A stretch of 64,000 nucleotides of DNA from Flavobacterium sp. (GCF_041392005.1 NZ_JAWKMX010000004.1:61325-125324), one strand, 5' to 3'; counted from the stretch's first letter, positions 12,532-48,134 are shown. Numbers and translations are program-made. The notes: generated by a model not told the origin, from the letters alone.

Positions 12532-14304
12532 ATGAACAATATTAACCGCTTATTTGATTTTCCATATTATCAATTGGAAAAATACCCGCTATCAGACGCA
12601 TTAGTAACCAAGTATGGAAACGAATGGGTTAAAACATCTACTCAAGAATATATTGACAAGGCCAATTGCATTTCCAGAGCTTTTCTGCGTTTAGGCTTAA
12701 ATAAAAATGAAAAAGTTGCCATTATTTCTTCAAATAATAGAACCGAATGGCATATTTGCGATATTGGTGTTTTACAAACAGGCGCACAAACTGTACCTAT
12801 TTACCCAACCATTTCCGAAGACGATTACGAATACATTTTAAACCATTCCGAATCGTCGTATTGTTTGGTTTCTGATGAAGAAGTGTTAAATAAAGTAAAT
12901 GCTATTAAACATAAAGTTGCATCATTAAAAGAAGTTTATACTTTTAATGAAATTGAAAATGCTAAAAATTGGAAAGAACTGCTAGAATTAGGTAAAGAAA
13001 CTTCCAATCAAGATGTAGTTGAAGATAGAAAGAACAGCATTAAAACCGAAGATTTGGCAACAATTATTTATACTTCGGGAACAACAGGAAGACCAAAAGG
13101 AGTTATGTTAACCCATCAAAATATTGTTTCAGATGTACTTATGAGTGCACCACGAGTACCATTAGTTAAAGGACAGGCAAAAGCCTTAAGTTTTTTACCA
13201 ATTTGTCATATTTTCGAACGTATGATTTTATACCTCTACCAATATTATGGTATATCGGTTTATTTTGCAGAAAGCATCGAAAAAATGTCAGAAAATTTAA
13301 AAGAGGTAAAACCCAATGTAATGACTGTGGTACCACGTTTGCTTGAAAAAGTGTACGACAAAATTTACGCTAAAGGAACCGATTTAACAGGTATAAAAAA
13401 GAAACTTTTCTTTTGGGCACTCGATTTAGGAATGCAGTACAAACCTAATAATGAAAACGACTTTTTATACAATTTAAAATTAAAAATAGCACGCAAACTC
13501 ATTTTCTCAAAATGGCAAGAAGCTCTAGGTGGCCAACTCGATGTTTTAGTTTGTGGAAGTGCGGCCTTACAAGAACGTTTGGCTCGAGTCTTTTCGGCAG
13601 CAGGCATTCCAGTTCTTGAAGGTTATGGTCTAACCGAAACTTCACCCGTAATTTCGGTAAATGAGCTAAATAACAAAGGTGTTCGTTTTGGTTCTGTGGG
13701 TCGCGTTTTACAAGGTGTAGAAGTTAAAATTGCCGAAGATGGCGAAATTCTTTGTAAAGGTCCAAATGTAATGATAGGTTACTATAAAGACCAAGAAAAA
13801 ACAGATGAAGCTATTAAAAATGGCTATTTTCATACAGGCGATATTGGCGTAATCGATAGCGATGGTTTCTTAAAAATAACCGACCGTAAAAAGGAAATGT
13901 TCAAAACTTCTGGCGGAAAATATGTTGCGCCTCAAGTTTTAGAAAATAGCTTTAAACAATCGCGATTTATCGAACAAATAATGGTAATCGGCGAAGGGCA
14001 AAAAATGCCAGCCGCTTTTATTCAACCTAGTTTTGAATTTTTGGCCGAATGGGCAAAACGAAAAAATATTGAACTAGGAAATACACCAGAAGACATTATA
14101 AAAAATGAACGCGTTATAAAACGTTTCCAAAAAGAACTAGATCGTGTAAATGAAAATTTTGGTAATTGGGAAAAAGTAAAAAAATTCGAGCTAACACCAG
14201 ATATTTGGTCTATCGAGTCAGGGCATTTAACACCAACTATGAAATTAAAACGAAAAATAATACTAGAAAAATATAAAGATTTATACCACAAAATTTATAG
14301 TTAA
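12532..14304 (+). CDS. fadD: long-chain fatty acid--CoA ligase
   Basis: IIYTSGTTGRPKG, EGYGLTETSP, YFHTGDIG, KITDRKK, LTPTMKLKR adenylate-forming motifs. Confidence 0.92.
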   Translation: MNNINRLFDFPYYQLEKYPLSDALVTKYGNEWVKTSTQEYIDKANCISRAFLRLGLNKNEKVAIISSNNRTEWHICDIGVLQTGAQTVPIYPTISEDDYEYILNHSESSYCLVSDEEVLNKVNAIKHKVASLKEVYTFNEIENAKNWKELLELGKETSNQDVVEDRKNSIKTEDLATIIYTSGTTGRPKGVMLTHQNIVSDVLMSAPRVPLVKGQAKALSFLPICHIFERMILYLYQYYGISVYFAESIEKMSENLKEVKPNVMTVVPRLLEKVYDKIYAKGTDLTGIKKKLFFWALDLGMQYKPNNENDFLYNLKLKIARKLIFSKWQEALGGQLDVLVCGSAALQERLARVFSAAGIPVLEGYGLTETSPVISVNELNNKGVRFGSVGRVLQGVEVKIAEDGEILCKGPNVMIGYYKDQEKTDEAIKNGYFHTGDIGVIDSDGFLKITDRKKEMFKTSGGKYVAPQVLENSFKQSRFIEQIMVIGEGQKMPAAFIQPSFEFLAEWAKRKNIELGNTPEDIIKNERVIKRFQKELDRVNENFGNWEKVKKFELTPDIWSIESGHLTPTMKLKRKIILEKYKDLYHKIYS

Positions 14305-14350
14305 ACCTTTATATTTAGTTACTTAAATTAAAAAATAATAAAATTTTATT

Positions 14351-14378
14351 AAAAATACTATGCGCGCATAGTATTTTT
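14351..14378. promoter_or_regulatory. perfect 28-bp palindrome, putative MarR operator
   Basis: AAAAATACTATGCGCGCATAGTATTTTT lies immediately before the -7 box TATATTTG (14382..14389) of marR. Confidence 0.7.
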
Positions 14379-14407
14379 TTTTATATTTGAACAATTATCT
14401 AAAATAA

Positions 14408-14854
14408 ATGAAGGATAAAACAATTGATTACGCTTTAAGAGCTACTTGGCAAGCTGTATCGAGAATGTATAATGAAGAAGCTACAAAATATGGCGCAACA
14501 ATGGCAACAGGTTTTGCATTATTAAGTATTGATAGAGAAAATGGCACACCATCAACAGCCCTTGGGCCAAAAATGGGAATGGAAGCCACAAGCTTAACTA
14601 GAACCTTAAAATCGATGGAAGAACGCGGATTAATCATAAGAAAAAAAAATCCAGACGACGGCAGAGGTGTATTAATACATTTAACAAAAGAAGGGCTAGA
14701 AAAAAGAGAACTTTCAAAAAATACGGTTTTAAAATTTAACGAGGTAATTAAAAATAATGTATCCAAAGAAAAATTAAATCATTTTATGGAAGTTGCCGAA
14801 TTAATTAACGATTTAATATCCGACAAAAAAATTTTTAACAACACATCAAAATAA
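14408..14854 (+). CDS. MarR family transcriptional regulator of the beta-oxidation operon
   Basis: wHTH: PSTALGPKMGMEATSLTRTLKSMEERGLI..DGRGVLIHLTKEG. Confidence 0.92.
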   Translation: MKDKTIDYALRATWQAVSRMYNEEATKYGATMATGFALLSIDRENGTPSTALGPKMGMEATSLTRTLKSMEERGLIIRKKNPDDGRGVLIHLTKEGLEKRELSKNTVLKFNEVIKNNVSKEKLNHFMEVAELINDLISDKKIFNNTSK

Positions 14855-14866
14855 ATCATTTATATA

Positions 14867-17248
14867 ATGAAAAGAAATATTAAAAAAGTAGCCGTAATTG
14901 GTTCAGGTATTATGGGAAGTGGCATCGCTTGTCATTTTGCCAATATTGGCGTAGAAGTGCTACTACTCGACATTGTTCCAAAAGAACTTACGGAAACTGA
15001 ACAAAAAAAAGGTTTATCATTAGAAAATAAATTAGTTCGCAACCGAATTGTAAATGAACATTTAACCAATGCTCTAAAATCGAAACCTTCTCCTATTTAT
15101 CATCAAAGTTTTGCCAACCGAATTACGACTGGTAATACTACTGATGACATGGCTAAAATTGCAGAAGCCGATTGGATTATTGAAGTAGTTGTGGAACGTT
15201 TAGATATTAAAAAATTGGTTTTTGAACAAGTTGAAAAATATCGAAAACCAGGAACATTAATTACAACCAATACTTCTGGAATTCCTATTCATTTTATGAG
15301 TGAAGGTAGAAGCGATGATTTTCAACAACATTTTTGCGGAACCCACTTTTTTAATCCGGCACGTTATTTAAAATTATTTGAAATTATTCCAGGACCAAAA
15401 ACTTCACAAGAAACGCTTGATTTTTTAAATGGTTATGGCGAAAAATTCCTTGGAAAAACATCGGTTGTTGCCAAAGATACTCCAGCATTTATAGGTAATC
15501 GAATCGGAATTTTTGGCATTATGAGTTTATTTCATCAAGTAAAAGAGATGAATTTAACCATTGAAGAAGTTGATAAATTAACTGGTCCAGTTATTGGTCG
15601 TCCAAAATCAGCAACGTTTCGTACGGTCGATGTTGTTGGTTTAGATACTTTGGTGCATGTAGCCAACGGAATTTTTGAAAATTGTCCTAATGATGAAGCG
15701 CATAATTTATTCAAATTGCCAGATTTCATTGATACGATGATGAAAAATAATTGGTTAGGAAGTAAAACTGGGCAAGGTTTTTATAAAAAAGTAGATAAAG
15801 ATATTCTTTCACTAGATTTAAATACATTAGAGTATCGACCAAATAAAAAAGCGTCTTTTGCGACTTTAGAGCTTACTAAAACTATCGATAAACCTATTAA
15901 TCGATTCAAAGTTTTAGTTGGTGGTAAAGATAAAGCAGGCGAATTTTACCGAAAAAACTTCTCGGCAATGTTTGCTTACTGCTCAAACAGAATTCCTGAA
16001 ATCACGGATGCCTTATACAAAATTGATGATGCTATGAAAGCTGGATTCGGTTGGGAAAATGGTCCATTCGAAATTTGGGATGCAATTGGTGTTGAAAAAG
16101 GTATCGAAATGATGAAAGCTGAAGGTTATGAACCAGCTTCATGGGTAAATGAAATGATAGCTTCAGGAACGACTTCTTTTTATTCTGTAAAAGATGGCGC
16201 CACTAATTACTACGCTATTTCTTCCAAATCAGTTGAAAAAATTCCTGGACAAGATGCTTTTATCATTTTAAATAATATAAGAGAAAATAAAAAAGTTTGG
16301 AATAACAACGAATCCATAATTACTGATTTAGGCGATGGTGTTTTAAATTTAGAATTTACTTCAAAAATGAATTCTATTGGTGCTGGTGTACTTCAAGGAA
16401 TTAATAAAGCAATCGATTTAGCCGAAAAAAATTATAATGGTTTAGTCATTGGCAATCAAGATGCTAACTTTTCAGTGGGTGCCAATTTAGGTATGATTTT
16501 TATGATGGCAGTAGAACAAGAATACGATTTAAATGAATTTGGCTATCAAAATGTTTCAAGATACGATGATGCGTTGTCGCTATCTTGGCACACTGGTAAT
16601 TGCTGCCCACACAATGGACATTGGGTGGTGATGAATTAACCATACGCCGACCGAGCTGTTGCAGCAGAAACGTATATCAGATTAGTCGAATTGGTGTATT
16701 AATTCCTGGTGGTGGCGGATCTAAAGAATGGCATTACGTGCAGCTGATACTTCGGTAAAATGATGTTGAACTAAACGTTTTACAAGAATATTTCTAATCG
16801 TTGGTATGGCGGTGTTGCAACATCAGTGAGCATGAAGGTTTTGATACTCGGAGTTTTACAAAAGTAAGACGCGATATAGTAGTAGTAAAGAAAGATCGTC
16901 AAACAGAATCTGCAAAACAAGTAGCTTACAATGGCCGAACAAGGTTATATGCAAACTGTAAAACGAGAAAAGATATAAAAAGTATTTGGGAAAACAAGCA
17001 TTAGGTATGTCTTTAGTAGGAACTGATAGTATGGTGTTTGGGAAATACATATCGGCTCATTGATAAAAAATTGCACAAACAGCTGGTGACGGCAGGTGGC
17101 GATTTGTCAGAAACCGAATTTGAAGAAGGTAAACAATATTTTATTAGATTTTGAAAGAGGGAAGCATTTTTAAGTTTAACTGCTGAACGAAAAACTTTAG
17201 AACGCATTCACATATGTTAGAACTAAAGGGAAGCCGCTTAGAAATTAG
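14867..17248 (+). pseudogene. fadN: 3-hydroxyacyl-CoA dehydrogenase/enoyl-CoA hydratase (FadN-like); apparent multiple frameshifts after about 16525, probably sequence error
   Basis: VAVIGSGIMGSGIA, HFFNP and FIGNRIG motifs; the hydratase half is recoverable in shifting frames and ends ..KPLRN* (TAG at 17246..17248). Confidence 0.85.
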
Positions 17249-17317
17249 TATCAAGTAATAAAAATTAAGTATTAAGACAATTATTTCTCTTTCTTCTTTC
17301 ATCTAAAATAAATTAAA

Positions 17318-18507
17318 ATGAAAACAGCATATATAGTAAAAGCATATCGTACTGCCGTTGGAAAAGCTCCAAAAGGATTATTCCGATTCAAAAGACCCGA
17401 TGAATTGGCAGCTGAAACCATTGATTATTTAATAAATCAATTACCCAATTTTGATAAAACCCGTATAGATGATGTAATGGTTGGAAATGCCATGCCCGAA
17501 GCCGAACAAGGTTTAAATATGGGGCGTTTAATTTTTATTGATGGGTTTGAAATGCACCCGATGATGTTCCAGGTAACAGTAAATCGCTATTGTGCTTCTT
17601 GGTTCAGAACACCAGCGGAGTGGCAACTGCAAAATCGTTGGCATGGTTTGATTGTATTATTGCTGGTGGTGCTGAAAGTATGAGTTATATACCATGGGTG
17701 TTTACAAACCAACTCCTGATTATAAAATCGCCAAAGAAGGTCATGAAGATTATTATTGGGAATGGGTTTAACCGCAGAAGCTGTCGCTAAACAATTTAAT
17801 GTTTCTCGTGACGATCAAGATGAATTTTGTATCAATCGCACATGAAAGCTTTAAAAGCACAAGCAGAAGGTAAATTTGATAACCAAATTGTTCCTATTTC
17901 AGTAGAGCATACATTTGTTAATGAAAAAGGTAAAAAAGAAACCACTTCTTATACGGTTTCAAAAGATGAAGGGCCAAGAGCAGGAACTTCAGTACAAGCA
18001 TTAGCAGGATTAAAACCTGTTTTTGCTGATGGAAGTGTAACTGCTGGAAATTCATCGCAAATGAGTGATGGCGCTGCTTTTGTTTTAATTATGAGTGAAG
18101 AAATGGTAAAAGAATTAAATCTTGAACCAATTGCACGATTAGTAAATTATGCAGCAGCAGGTGTTGAGCCACGTATAATGGGAATTGGCCCTGTAAAAGC
18201 AATTCCAAAAGCACTAAAACAAGCAGGTTTAAAACAATCAGATATTGAATTAATTGAATTGAATGAAGCCTTTGCTTCACAGTCATTAGCAGTTATTCGT
18301 GAACTCGACTTAAACCCAGAAATAATCAATGTTAATGGCGGTGCTATAGCTTTAGGACATCCATTGGGTTGTACAGGTGCCAAATTAGCCGTTCAATTAT
18401 TCGATGAAATGCGTTTACGTAATAACAAATACGGAATGGTTACCATGTGTGTAGGAACAGGACAAGGAGCAGCGGCAATGAGAATTATTATAAATGTTGA
18501 ATTTTAA
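17318..18507 (+). pseudogene. fadA: acetyl-CoA C-acyltransferase (thiolase); apparent frameshifts, probably sequence error
   Basis: AYRTAVGKA, VNRYCAS, IIAGGAESMS, ELNEAFASQ, GGAIALGHPLG, MCVGTGQG motifs spread across several frames. Confidence 0.85.
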
Positions 18508-18510
18508 ATT

Positions 18511-18847
18511 ATGAAGGGTGATAATTTAATAGCTAATAAAATCTTTGAATTTTCAATTAACAATTATTGCACTTTATATTCTATTAAAAGGAAAGTAATT
18601 TGTCATTTCAGCAACTTTGAAAACTGGAACAAGTATTGGTGTTAATATAGAAGAAGCTATTGCAGCACAATCTAAAAAGATTTATTAGTAAATGTCAATC
18701 GCTTCCAAGGAGGCAAGAGAAACAAAATATTGGTTAAAATTATTAGATAAATCAGAATTAACAAAAGTTGGATGTATCACCTCATCTTGAGAAATTGAAC
18801 ATATAATAAATATTATTGCCAAAATAATAATAACATCAAAAAAATAA
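18511..18847 (+). pseudogene. four-helix-bundle protein (23S rRNA IVP / TIGR02436 family); apparent frameshifts
   Basis: Reconstructable across frames: MKGDNLIANKS.. GTSIG.NIEEAIAAQSKKD.. KMSIASKEARETKYWLKLLDKSEL.. EIEHIINIIAKIIITSKK*. Confidence 0.8.
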
Positions 18848-18882
18848 TAAAACATTTAAAATTCATTTAAAATAACAACACT

Positions 18883-20658
18883 ATGGCTGATATACTAAGA
18901 GGAGGTCAATCTTTGTTAAAGAAACTAAATGTGAAGACGTTTTCACACCCGGAAGATTTCTCGGAAGAACAAATCATGATGCGCGATTCGCTATCGAATT
19001 CGTAGATAAATAATTATGGCCGTTTAAAGAACGTTTCGAAAAAAAGATTATGCCTTACGGAAGAAGTAATGCGCAAAGCAGGTGAATTGGGGCTATTTAA
19101 GTGTAGCGGTTCCTGGTGCTTATGAAGTGATTGAATGGGTTTCATCAATACCGTTTTGGTTTGCGATTATATCTCTGGAGCAACTGCCTATTTTCAACAG
19201 CTTTGGAGCTCATACCGAATTGGTACCATGCCAATAACCTTATACGGTACAGAAGAACAAAAACAAAAATATGTACCAAAATTGGCTTCGGGAGAATGGT
19301 TTGGTGCGTACTGCTTAACTGAACCGGGTGCAGGATCTGATGCCAATTCAGGGAAAACCAAAGCCGTTTTATCTGAAGATGGTACACATTACAAAATTAC
19401 TGGTGGCAAAATGTGGATTTCAAATGCGGGATTTTGTTCATTATTTATAGTATTTGCTCGTATTGAAGATGATAAAAACATCACTGGATTTATTGTAGAA
19501 AATGATCCTTCAAACGGAATTTCTCTTGGTGAAGAAGAGCATAAATTAGGAATTCGCTCCTCTTCTACTCGACAAGTATTTTTTAATGAAACAAAAGTTC
19601 CTGTAGAAAATATGCTAGCATAGTCGTGGTGAAGGGTTTAAAATTGCTATGAATGCGCTCAATGTTGGTCGTATAAAATTAGCAGCCGCTTGTCTTGAAG
19701 CACAAAGAAGAACGATTTCTACAGCGGTAAATTATGCTAATGAACGATTTCAGTTTAATGTCCCAATTTCTAGTTTTGGTGCTATTCAAGCCAAATTAGC
19801 AGAAATGGCAACCAATGCTTATGCTGGAGAAAGTGCCACTTACCGTGCAGCAGCTGACATTCAAAAAAGAATTGAAATTCGTGAAAATGAAGGTAATTCA
19901 CATCAAGAAGCTGAATTAAAAGGTGTTGAAGAATTTGCTATAGAATGTTCTATTTTGAAAGTAGCCGTTTCTGAAGACGTACAACATTGCACCGATGAAG
20001 GAATTCAAATTTTTGGTGGCATGGGCTTTTCTGAAGATGCACCTATGGAAAGTGCTTGGCGCGATGCTCGTATTGCTCGTATTTACGAAGGTACAAACGA
20101 AATTAATCGCATGCTTTCCGTAGGAATGTTGATTAAAAAAGCAATGAAAAGACATGTTGATTTATTAGTCCGCTGTAGCAGAAGAACGATGGCAATTCAT
20201 CATTTGATGTACCCGACTATTCGGAATTATTTACTGAAGAAAAAGAAATGATTGCCAAATTGAAAAAAGCGTTTTTAATGGTATCGGGAGCAGCGGTGCA
20301 AAAATATGGTCCAGAATTAGAATCGCACCAACAATTATTGATGGCAGCAGCCGATATGTTGATTGAAATTTATATGGCAGAAAGCACGCTTTTACGTACC
20401 GAAAAATTGGTTAAAAAAGTAGGTCAAGATAAGGCACAAGAACAAATTGCCATGGCACAATTGTATTTGTACAATGCGGTAGATATCATTAATCAAAAAG
20501 GAAAAGAAGGTATTGTTTCATTTGCAGAAGGAGATGAACAACGCATGATGCTTATGGGCTTACGCCGTTTTACAAAATATGTAAATATGCCCAATGTTGT
20601 GGCATTAAGAAATAAAATTGCTGAAAAAGTAATTGCTGAAAATGCGTATTGCTTTTAA
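18883..20658 (+). pseudogene. acyl-CoA dehydrogenase (FadE-like, about 590 aa); apparent frameshifts, probably sequence error
   Basis: YCLTEPGAGSDA, ITGGKMWISNAG, KLGIRSSST, LNVGRIKLAA, QIFGGMGF, RIARIYEGTNEI motifs across ORFs 19135, 19649 and 20248. Confidence 0.85.
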
Positions 20659-20684
20659 TTGCAAATTTTGGTTTAGTTTGTTTT

Positions 20685-20713
20685 AAAAATGCAGTCTATA
20701 GGCTGCATTTTTT
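20685..20713 (+). terminator. intrinsic terminator of the fad operon
   Basis: aaaaatgcagtc-tata-ggctgcatttttt. Confidence 0.8.
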
Positions 20714-43757: not shown

Positions 43758-43846
43758 ATAAATTATGCGTTATGAATTTTAAATTTTAAATTGCAAACAA
43801 ATATACTAATTGACCTTTAAACTACTAGCATTTTAAGTTTTAAATA

Positions 43847-46376: not shown

Positions 46377-48134
46377 TTATTTTCCTTTTTCCATTTTCTC
46401 TTTTAATTCAGCTAAAGCATCAATATCGCCTAAAGTAGTTTTTTCTACGTTAGCGGTAGTTTTTTCAGCTGCTTCTTTAATTGCTTTTTCTTCTTCTTCA
46501 CGGAAAATAGCCGTATGAGAAGCTACAACTCTTTTAAATTCTTTGTTGAACTCGATAATTTTGAAATCGGCAGTATCGCCTTTTTTCAATTTTTTACCGT
46601 CTTCTTGCTCTAAATGACGAGTAGGAATAAAAGCAACAACATCGTCACCGAAGTCTACAGTTGCACCTTTGTCAACCATTTCTCCGATTGTTCCATTGTG
46701 GATAGTTCCAACAGCAAAAGCTTCTTCATGTTTATCCCAAGGGTTTTCTGTAGTTTGTTTATGACCTAATGATAATTTACGACCATCAACATCTAATTCT
46801 AATACTACAACGTCTAATTTATCGCCTACATTAACAAATTCTGATGGATGTTTAATTTTCTTAGTCCAAGATAAATCTGAGATATATACTAAACCATCTA
46901 CACCTTCTTCTAACTCTACGAAAACACCAAAGTTTGTAAAGTTACGAACTGTTCCTGTGTGTTTAGAACCTACAGGGTATTTAGTTGTAATATCAGTCCA
47001 AGGATCGGTAGTTAATTGCTTAATACCTAACGACATTTTGCGTTCGTCTCTATCTAATGTTAAAATAACCGCTTCTACCTCATCGCCTACTTTTACGAAA
47101 TCTTGTGCGCTACGTAAATGCGTTGACCAAGACATTTCAGAAACGTGAATTAAACCTTCAACACCTTCAGCTACTTCAATAAAAGCACCATAATCTGCTA
47201 AAACAACTACTTTTCCTTTTACTTTGTCGCCAACTGCTAAATTAGCATCTAAAGCGTCCCAAGGATGTGCGTTTAATTGTTTTAAACCTAATTGAATACG
47301 TGTTTTCTCATCATCAAAATCTAAGATAACAACGTTTAATTTTTGGTCTAATTCTAATACTTCAGATGGGTGGTTAATACGAGACCAAGATAAATCGGTA
47401 ATGTGAATTAAACCATCTACACCTCCTAAATCGATGAATACACCATAAGAAGTAATGTTTTTAACTACACCTTCTAATACTTGACCTTTTTCTAATTGAC
47501 CAATAATTTCTTTTTTCTGTTCTTCGATATCAGCCTCGATAAGCGCTTTATGAGAAACAACAACGTTTTTGAATTCGTGGTTAATTTTTACCACTTTAAA
47601 TTCCATAGTTTTGTTTACGTATTGATCGTAATCACGAATTGGTTTAACGTCAATTTGTGAACCTGGTAAGAATGCTTCGATTCCGAAAACATCTACAATC
47701 ATACCACCTTTTGTTCTACATTTTACAAAACCATTAACAATTTCTCCAGTTTCATTTGCTGCAATAACTCTATCCCAAGCTTTAATAACTCTTGCTTTTC
47801 TGTGCGATAATACTAATTGACCTGTTTTATCTTCACGAATATCGATTAAAACTTCTACTTTATCGCCAACTTTTAAGTTAGGATTGTAACGAAATTCGTT
47901 TAAAGAAATAACACCTTCCGATTTAGCATTAATATCAACAATAGCATCTCTATCGGTAATTCTTACTACTACACCTTCTACTACTTCTTGATCGTCTGTA
48001 GATACGAAAGTTTTTGATACTAAATCTTCAAATTCTTGCAAGTTTTTTTCATCTACTGCATCAATTCCTTCTTCGTAATTGTGCCAGTTAAAGTTTGCTA
48101 AGAATTCTTCTTGTGTTTTGTTAATTTCAGACAT
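46377..48134 (-). CDS. rpsA: 30S ribosomal protein S1
   Basis: Six S1 repeats (YGVFIDLGGVDGLIHITDLSW, YGAFIEVAEGVEGLIHVSEMSW, FGVFVELEEGVDGLVYISDLSW); start taken at MSEINK (48134). Confidence 0.97.
   Translation of the reverse strand: MSEINKTQEEFLANFNWHNYEEGIDAVDEKNLQEFEDLVSKTFVSTDDQEVVEGVVVRITDRDAIVDINAKSEGVISLNEFRYNPNLKVGDKVEVLIDIREDKTGQLVLSHRKARVIKAWDRVIAANETGEIVNGFVKCRTKGGMIVDVFGIEAFLPGSQIDVKPIRDYDQYVNKTMEFKVVKINHEFKNVVVSHKALIEADIEEQKKEIIGQLEKGQVLEGVVKNITSYGVFIDLGGVDGLIHITDLSWSRINHPSEVLELDQKLNVVILDFDDEKTRIQLGLKQLNAHPWDALDANLAVGDKVKGKVVVLADYGAFIEVAEGVEGLIHVSEMSWSTHLRSAQDFVKVGDEVEAVILTLDRDERKMSLGIKQLTTDPWTDITTKYPVGSKHTGTVRNFTNFGVFVELEEGVDGLVYISDLSWTKKIKHPSEFVNVGDKLDVVVLELDVDGRKLSLGHKQTTENPWDKHEEAFAVGTIHNGTIGEMVDKGATVDFGDDVVAFIPTRHLEQEDGKKLKKGDTADFKIIEFNKEFKRVVASHTAIFREEEEKAIKEAAEKTTANVEKTTLGDIDALAELKEKMEKGK

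Follow-up and report, generated by a model that had tools for sequence, protein, structure and literature searches.

The 64,000-nucleotide stretch of DNA analysed here (the window; Flavobacterium sp., GCF_041392005.1, NZ_JAWKMX010000004.1:61325-125324) carries an operon with the gene order MarR, fadB, thiolase, IVP and acyl-CoA dehydrogenase, in which a small four-helix-bundle gene of the IVP/S23p family occupies the thiolase-dehydrogenase junction, rather than 23S rRNA helix 25 or 45, and stands between two facing arrays of seven-nucleotide repeats. These arrays, here called arms, and the gene that they enclose are one heritable unit, since arms of the same family accompany one protein clade, denoted type A, at no fewer than five unrelated gene junctions and in five phyla. 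The features of the locus, in window coordinates, are as follows, G021 being a relative whose operon served for comparison.

14867 to 17245, plus strand: fadB-type 3-hydroxyacyl-CoA dehydrogenase/enoyl-CoA hydratase (Pfam 3HCDH_N, 3HCDH; tblastn with the 796-residue ortholog of G021)
16528 to 20198, no strand: dense patch of frame-breaking indels, starting in fadB and ending in the acyl-CoA dehydrogenase gene (MAFFT alignment with the G021 ortholog)
17318 to 18493, plus strand: thiolase (fadA), broken by indels in the assembly (Pfam Thiolase_N, Thiolase_C; G021 alignments)
18488 to 18515, plus strand: 5' arm, four heptamers ttataaa tgttgaa ttttaaa ttatgaa (consensus T[GT][TA]T[GAT]AA)
18511 to 18846, plus strand: IVP/four-helix-bundle gene of the type A clade (PF05635, TIGR02436; G021 orthology)
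18852 to 18880, plus strand: 3' arm, inverted heptamer array acatttaaaattcatttaaaataac (its reverse complement contains ttttaaa-tgaa-ttttaaa)
18883 to 20658, plus strand: acyl-CoA dehydrogenase of the 598-residue type (Pfam Acyl-CoA_dh_N, Acyl-CoA_dh_M, Acyl-CoA_dh_1; tblastn with G021)

A first-pass annotation had placed a four-helix-bundle open reading frame (ORF) of the IVP/TIGR02436 family between the thiolase and dehydrogenase genes, and domain matches bear this out: the stitched window protein scores 47.8 bits with PF05635 (cut-off 33.8) and 58.5 bits with TIGR02436 (cut-off 24), and both neighbours are identified by their own Pfam domains. The intact 118-residue protein is the G021 ortholog, which reaches 97.4 bits with TIGR02436, and the best solved relative is 2RLD (five chains; E = 3.9e-24 over residues 3-113, a match of sequence only). 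The four heptamers reported before the ORF, with the start codon in the last unit, and the inverted array reported after it can both be read at the positions listed above. By orthology with G021 the true thiolase stop codon is the TAA at 18491-18493, the frame having been shifted by a 2-nucleotide (nt) indel at 18479, and the 5' arm overlaps both this stop codon and the IVP start codon (ATG at 18511), while the dehydrogenase ATG, placed at 18883 by the G021 alignment, lies about 3-5 nt beyond the end of the 3' arm. No terminator was predicted in the thiolase-dehydrogenase junction, no Rfam family matched 18300-19000 at its gathering score, and PADLOC assigned no defence family to type A or type B IVP proteins (the latter described below) at E <= 0.01.

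The same annotation had suspected local sequence errors, and the alignment with G021 fits this remark. In a MAFFT alignment of 12868-20700 with the G021 operon, 39 frame-breaking indels fall in 3.7 kb (16528-20198), compared with none within the coding sequence of the preceding 3.6 kb (12868-16527); the fadB frame is intact to about residue 555 and shifted beyond it, the dehydrogenase is frameshifted up to about 20198, and the IVP ORF is split over three frames by at least three breaks. Were these breaks real, the window copy would be a dead relic in a lineage whose fad operon, IVP included, is decaying, and the spread of the breaks through fadB, thiolase, IVP and dehydrogenase would agree with this, as would the shorter arms of the window copy (by 12 nt for the 5' arm and 3 nt for the 3' arm, relative to G021). 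We consider a relic quite improbable, as the patch ends sharply inside genes, at about residue 555 of 796 in fadB and about residue 450 of 598 in the dehydrogenase, whereas uniform decay of a dead operon gives no such edges. Moreover, the first 1.66 kb of fadB is free of indels, although the rate of the patch would predict about 17, nucleotide identity to G021 is equal on both sides of the edges (0.72-0.77 within, 0.70-0.81 outside) and conserved residues are kept in the in-frame stretches. Further stretches of 3-6 kb with very low ORF coverage, which may be similar low-quality patches, occur elsewhere in the same assembly, denoted G000 (contigs C13:43827-50203, C1:242046-248130, C8:34897-40824, C4:149233-154815, C14:14668-19849 and C2:169588-174403). 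The patch is thus most likely an error of assembly or sequencing and not decay, which makes the apparently broken fad operon of the window most likely an assembly artefact and the IVP gene, therefore, probably intact in the organism; the shortening of the arms may be part of the same problem.

Taken alone, the inverted flanks of the window copy are marginal. Its 5' flank scores 12.5 against the reverse complement of its 3' flank, a value near the 95th percentile for 2127 ORF models from this genome, and with a short linker between them the two arms reach a folding energy of -7.6 kcal/mol (z = -1.6). These modest values, and a genome in which 246 of 489 tandem arrays, of period 7-9, lie in the 11% that is intergenic, are what could be said for chance, that is, for an ordinary small gene sitting among AT-rich spacers with only a seeming inverted periodicity. 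The 5' array itself is beyond chance, three tandem TKWTDAA units being matched five times in the window against 0.73 expected, a count that 0 of 100 shuffles reached. The arms are also conserved in orthologs, where the terminal inverted repeats that could form a stem around the IVP ORF become clear: those of G021 fold at -17.5 kcal/mol (z = -4.9), and in the copy of Flavobacterium terrigena DSM 17934 at the same junction (locus L104) the stem is perfect over 31 bp (-31.2 kcal/mol, z = -11.7). Set against the 3' arms of 75 related cassettes, the window 5' flank has a median score of 14.5, whereas AT-rich intergenic controls have 8.0 (p = 5e-30). Pairing of the window 3' flank is weaker but still above its controls (median 10.5 versus 8.5, p = 6e-14); the window flanks are members of the type A arm family. 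Given this conservation and the genome-wide and family-wide scores that follow, we regard chance as a very remote explanation.

The first-pass annotation had proposed that IVP genes be examined for enrichment of inverted periodic flanks, and strong enrichment is found. The G000 assembly holds about ten PF05635 loci, nearly all with a short upstream tandem array and an inverted downstream copy. Ranked by flank complementarity among 2127 genes, seven of the ten fall within the top 5%, and five of these within the top 1% (P = 1.4e-8). Besides these, the highest scores belong only to two RAYT-like transposase genes, whose flanks resemble repetitive extragenic palindromic (REP) sequences, to one gene between REP-like hairpins, and to an orphan cassette at 31.7 kb in the window, from which it follows that the flank test finds real elements. 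The 31.7-kb cassette, which had been described as having the same architecture with a different repeat unit, does so, with a flank score of 26 and arms agtgaaa.../...ttcact. The RAYT-like genes (IS200/Y1-type; C8:72745-73365 and C1:76838-77386) have GC-rich inverted flanks.

Beyond this genome, every genome surveyed in the genus (61 of 61) has members of the IVP/S23p family, as do 114 of 151 genomes in the phylum. For 74 cassettes drawn from the G000 genome, the genus and the phylum, each 5' flank was scored against its own 3' flank (cis) or those of the others (trans); the cis median was 15.5 and the trans median 8.0, with 56 of the 74 cis scores above the 95th percentile of trans (p = 1.5e-36). 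The period of the arms is 7 in 48 of 80, 8 in 23 and 9 in 7. Across the cassettes of the genus and the G000 genome, G exceeds C in the 5' arm of 32, compared with 6 of the opposite kind, the 3' arm being C-rich accordingly; the ordinary junction arrays of the G000 genome have no such G/C polarity (70 versus 86).

Evidence that arms and gene belong together comes from cassettes of one protein clade at different addresses. A search with the G021 protein, using one genome per species, returned 80 loci at 53-86% identity (type A relatives number at least 550 in all), the hosts being Flavobacterium, Salegentibacter, Aequorivita, Christiangramia, Chryseobacterium, Elizabethkingia, Cloacibacterium, Chitinophagaceae, Prolixibacteraceae, Balneolaceae, Ignavibacteriota, Lentisphaerota and Chloroflexota. 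Almost all of the 80 carry the window arm family (5' ...ttttaaatgttgaattttaaattttaaat, 3' atttaaaatttaaaattcaacatttaaaa). Type A cassettes numbered 75, of which 31 lie between thiolase and dehydrogenase genes, 18 at a preA-like junction, 4 between the genes for pyruvate dehydrogenase E1-beta and E2, 3 beside an efflux gene, 3 at recN and 16 in other places. At least three tandem consensus heptamers occur in 25 of the 75 5' flanks and 31 of the 75 3' flanks, but in only 1 of 300 controls. When type A 5' flanks were scored against type A 3' arms, the median was 17.5 for cassettes of the same junction type and 13.0 for those of another, compared with 7.0 against type B arms and 8.5 against AT-rich (25% G+C) intergenic controls, whose 99th percentile was 13.5.

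Type B, the second IVP subfamily, has arms of agaagca/tgcttct and leads to the same conclusion. The type B cassette at the thiolase-dehydrogenase junction of the relative G015 is sister (98% SH-aLRT) to one at another junction of the G000 genome (C1:32217), and the DNA homology between the two runs from the 5' arm through the ORF to the 3' arm, ending at the outer edges of the arms. It is because type A arms follow their clade across junctions without pairing with type B, and because the homology of this sister pair spans arms and ORF, that the two are taken as one unit. That arm sequence tracks protein clade wherever the cassette sits also supports a specific partnership between protein and repeat. 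The first-pass annotation had named the bundle protein as a candidate trans-acting factor of the system; the association that is seen is one in cis, each IVP lying between its own arms.

The proposal that filled and empty fad junctions be compared has likewise been followed up, and filled, empty and arms-only thiolase-dehydrogenase junctions all exist. Among 29 relatives surveyed, the junction is empty in six (7-29 nt) and consists of 65 nt without arrays in one more; one relative (G021) has the type A ortholog there, nine have a type B cassette and a tenth a remnant of one. In four, only the facing arms are present and the gene is absent, and in one, only a 5' array; hairpin elements of unrelated kinds fill the junction in four more, and other genes do so in two. 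In G010 the arms are of type A and about 90% identical to those of G021, with 24 nt and no ORF between them. Placed on the thiolase tree, the state of the junction changes 16 times, compared with 15-20 for shuffled labels, and G021 is sister to G016, which has type B, so the junction is very labile within the genus. Within Flavobacterium the type A copy is often lost, reduced to its arms or replaced by another IVP cassette. No clean breakpoint could be found in a filled and empty pair with near-identical thiolases (L028 versus L029), which differ throughout the spacer and in the opening codons of the dehydrogenase.

Several further hairpins and arrays deserve mention. The unrelated hairpins at the thiolase-dehydrogenase junction of other Flavobacterium (loci L015, L021 and L024, L027) are of two kinds, one a GC-rich palindromic element (ccccctaaccccc...gggggttaggggg) and the other an inverted-repeat element, 'tttgtcatttcgacgaaggagaaatc'. 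By analogy with REPINs, arms-only hairpins were sought in the G000 genome, and only four periodic ones were found. An arms-only hairpin with type A-like units at C8:20690-20743 (tatgaattataaatta ... attcataatttataattcataa, 13-nt spacer) lies 13 nt past the 3' end of a 392-residue gene that holds a match to a thiolase paralog, and resembles an empty cassette placed after a second thiolase. A solo array of the same heptamer family, ttatgaattttaaattttaaa, lies in a divergent spacer at window positions 43770-43790 (C4:105094) without an inverted partner; contig C42 (C42:3555) has the identical array and flanks, so that a part of this region is present twice in the assembly. The IVP copy at C20:46915-47387 has a long 5' array of about eight agtgaat/agtgaga units and, downstream, an array first in direct and then in inverted orientation, the two forming an extra arms-only hairpin at 47295-47387.

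On longer time scales the cassettes have moved only rarely. The junction label changes five times on the type A protein tree, where four is the minimum, the thiolase-dehydrogenase copies of Flavobacteriaceae and Weeksellaceae group together, and within the genus IVP proteins cluster by locus and not by genome; each junction type represents essentially one insertion followed by vertical descent. Since each junction type is roughly one protein clade, the thiolase-dehydrogenase copy is an old and mostly vertical resident of the Flavobacteriales. The statement that the gene was inserted in the fad operon thus stands on a deep time scale but fails as a recent arrival, type A at this junction being nearly one clade of Flavobacteriaceae and Weeksellaceae. 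One locus from a metagenome-assembled genome labelled Flavobacterium sp. (L166) has type A at the preA-like junction otherwise typical of Chitinophagaceae and groups with them, which may reflect either horizontal transfer or wrong binning of the contig.

Orthologs at the same locus have diverged to a dS (synonymous divergence) of 0.9-1.7 with a ratio of nonsynonymous to synonymous change (dN/dS) of 0.08-0.21, the value at the fad junction being 0.08, from which we conclude that the IVP proteins are kept by selection. The complementarity of the arms must also be maintained, because unconstrained arms would lose their pairing at such divergence. In three of five groups of same-locus orthologs the arms have changed in concert, cis scores exceeding orthologous trans scores (p = 3e-5, 0.004 and 0.05), and in the other two they are simply conserved.

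Selection and persistence at this site raise the possibility of a domesticated regulatory module of beta-oxidation, in which IVP and hairpin control the expression or stability of the fad transcript to the benefit of the host. The cassette is indeed kept at the thiolase-dehydrogenase junction across Flavobacteriaceae and Weeksellaceae, with its low dN/dS there, and IVP cassettes are met repeatedly in beta-oxidation operons: IVP genes lie at the fadB-thiolase junction in Flavobacterium G010, G019 and G009, and of the 29 best IVP hits in the phylum 11, all in one other family (f39), are found immediately upstream of a thiolase gene (L074, L075, L078, L081, L084, L087, L090, L091, L094, L096 and L102), some of them at fadB-thiolase junctions. 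Compared as possible cross-class orthologs, the fadB-thiolase IVPs of G010 and f39 are 45-53% identical, similar to the genes that flank them, but are not joined on the tree. A module of this kind is nevertheless distinctly unlikely in our view, given that the junction is empty or otherwise filled in many congeners with intact fad genes, that its state is uncorrelated with the thiolase tree and that the same element resides in unrelated operons (preA-like, pyruvate dehydrogenase E2, efflux and recN).

As to geometry, the genes on both sides share the orientation of the IVP gene in 62 of 76 cassettes. The median distance is 4 nt from the upstream stop codon to the start of the 5' arm and 6 nt from the end of the 3' arm to the next start codon, and in 26 of 40 cassettes the 3' arm begins within 4 nt of the IVP stop codon. 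As the arms span the interval from stop to start, their pairing would join the stop codon of one host gene to the start codon of the next and loop out the cargo.

The explanation that we favour, with a rough probability of 0.55 for the whole, is a discrete type A cassette (5' heptamer array, IVP gene, inverted 3' array) with processing at the RNA level. The anatomy and evolutionary behaviour of the cassette are well supported; the more specific step, RNA-level looping and processing with an IVP oligomer that binds its own repeats, is argued by analogy and has perhaps one chance in three. The cassette would be transcribed as part of the operon, and the arms would then pair in the RNA, so that the IVP frame is looped out and the thiolase stop codon brought beside the dehydrogenase start codon. 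The arm stem would probably be a substrate of RNase III, as in the 23S rRNA intervening sequences (IVSs) that bear S23p, and an RNase III is encoded in the G000 genome (C2:140393-140764). Because the heptamer sequence itself, beyond mere complementarity, is conserved with the protein clade, each set of repeat arrays is probably bound, as RNA or DNA, by the oligomer of the IVP that it encloses; such binding would couple IVP to the maintenance, regulation or rare movement of its cassette.

A number of results weigh against RNA-level processing of such a cassette. Mismatches within the arms are of G:U type in 32 cases and of A:C type in 68, which gives no support to selection on a sense-strand RNA stem (base composition probably accounts for the surplus of A in the sense strand). 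Type A arms consist almost wholly of A and U, many copies have only modest stability, and when the window cassette is folded at full length only seven closing pairs form. Across 46 cassettes, 34 close in full-length folds compared with 24 for a control, which is however a poor one (reversed 3' flank, low-complexity arms), so that we attach little importance to these folds. The conservation of arm sequence fits a DNA-level recognition site equally, and a cassette so long inherited in place could have a domesticated function just as readily as be a selfish element. Finally, neither a target-site duplication nor a clean insertion boundary was found at the edges of the cassettes.

Some of these results would suit a mobile element acting at the DNA level, with arrays that serve as terminal inverted repeats read by the IVP oligomer or a host enzyme and an RNA stem that is incidental. 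The conservation of arm sequence, beyond pairing, with the protein clade across sites and phyla would be expected of it, as would homology between cassettes at different junctions that stops exactly at the outer arm ends and the lack of a G:U excess in arm mismatches, and the RAYT-like genes with REP-like repeats in the same genome indicate that the flank test detects true DNA elements. We hold such an element to be unlikely all the same. The missing target-site duplication tells against it too, no nuclease or recombinase fold is known for IVP, about one insertion per junction type has occurred over phylum-scale time, near-identical copies within a genome are absent, and an element acting on DNA only would need neither co-orientation nor arms that abut stop and start codons. 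The traits of a transposon or a miniature inverted-repeat transposable element are similarly wanting, with no transposase in the unit, no duplication at its boundaries, and paralogs in the G000 genome that are deeply diverged and locus-specific.

The processed-cassette explanation has its nearest parallel in the rRNA elements. The 23S rRNA IVS of Coxiella burnetii has a 28-bp terminal stem, which RNase III cuts in vitro, and before the S23p frame two to three tandem copies of the heptamer GACAGAT, in a number that varies by strain (PMC4990558). IVSs in 23S rRNA that bear S23p/IVP also occur in Leptospira (a 1993 study by Ralph and McClelland, cited in PMC4990558). The operon cassettes resemble them in having the same protein family in the loop, terminal inverted repeats that enclose the ORF, heptamers directly upstream of it, as in Coxiella, and a sense orientation inside a transcription unit. 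They differ in sitting in the spacer of a protein-coding operon and in having heptamer arrays for both arms; excision by RNase III is proven for the rRNA elements, whereas for the operon cassette it is a candidate by analogy, and S23p of Coxiella is seemingly decaying, in contrast to the operon IVPs under purifying selection.

A second comparison is with Avd, whose kinship with the IVP family, cited in the first-pass annotation, is established: Avd forms a positively charged barrel of five subunits that resembles S23 ribosomal proteins, and it contacts a defined RNA element (bioRxiv 10.1101/2023.10.23.563531). The point of likeness is the related four-helix-bundle fold, which in Avd makes up the RNA-binding barrel. 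There is no template and variable repeat pair at the cassette, where the IVP gene stands alone between inverted arrays, and no RVT_1 match was found in the whole G000 assembly (95% complete); in a genome without a reverse transcriptase, the IVPs are not Avd partners of a retroelement.

RAYT genes and their REP sequences (REPINs) share with the cassettes a small gene in inverted repeats and the occurrence of gene-less derivatives, here arms-only hairpins and solo arrays. IVP is not a Y1 transposase, however, the arms are periodic 7-mers where REP is a single palindrome, and gene-less IVP copies are few, as the four periodic hairpins attest. Intergenic heptanucleotide repeats are known from cyanobacteria, as short tandemly repeated repetitive (STRR) sequences, and among the long simple-sequence repeats of prokaryotes, and like the arrays described here they are tandem 7-mers concentrated in intergenic spacers. 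We know of no protein partner assigned to repeats of the STRR type, nor of any description of them as inverted pairs around a gene.

A broader idea, which we put forward as possible rather than probable, is a system of two parts, in which each IVP clade recognises a 7-mer of its own, and in which a minimal cassette free of any transposase could settle in any transcribed spacer or rRNA helix tip because it loops out of the RNA, which would unite the 23S IVSs, the operon cassettes and a part of the intergenic heptamers. In the literature searched we found no description of heptamer-armed IVP cassettes in protein-coding operons or otherwise outside rRNA, and heptamers together with IVP only in the Coxiella IVS paper (PMC4990558). 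New here are the specificity of arm family for protein clade across insertion sites and phyla, the pattern of a single insertion for each junction type, the reach of the arms from stop codon to start codon, the purifying selection on IVP, and the series of filled, empty, arms-only and replaced states at one junction.

To our knowledge, the IVP/S23p family has had no assigned function since its discovery in rRNA intervening sequences. The clade-linked heptamers provide it with a testable partner, and turn a vague association of IVP with repeats into specific questions, namely whether an IVP binds its own repeats or foreign ones, whether RNase III processes the cassette transcript and what the cassette does to the expression of flanking genes. 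They also offer a candidate origin for some intergenic heptamer arrays.

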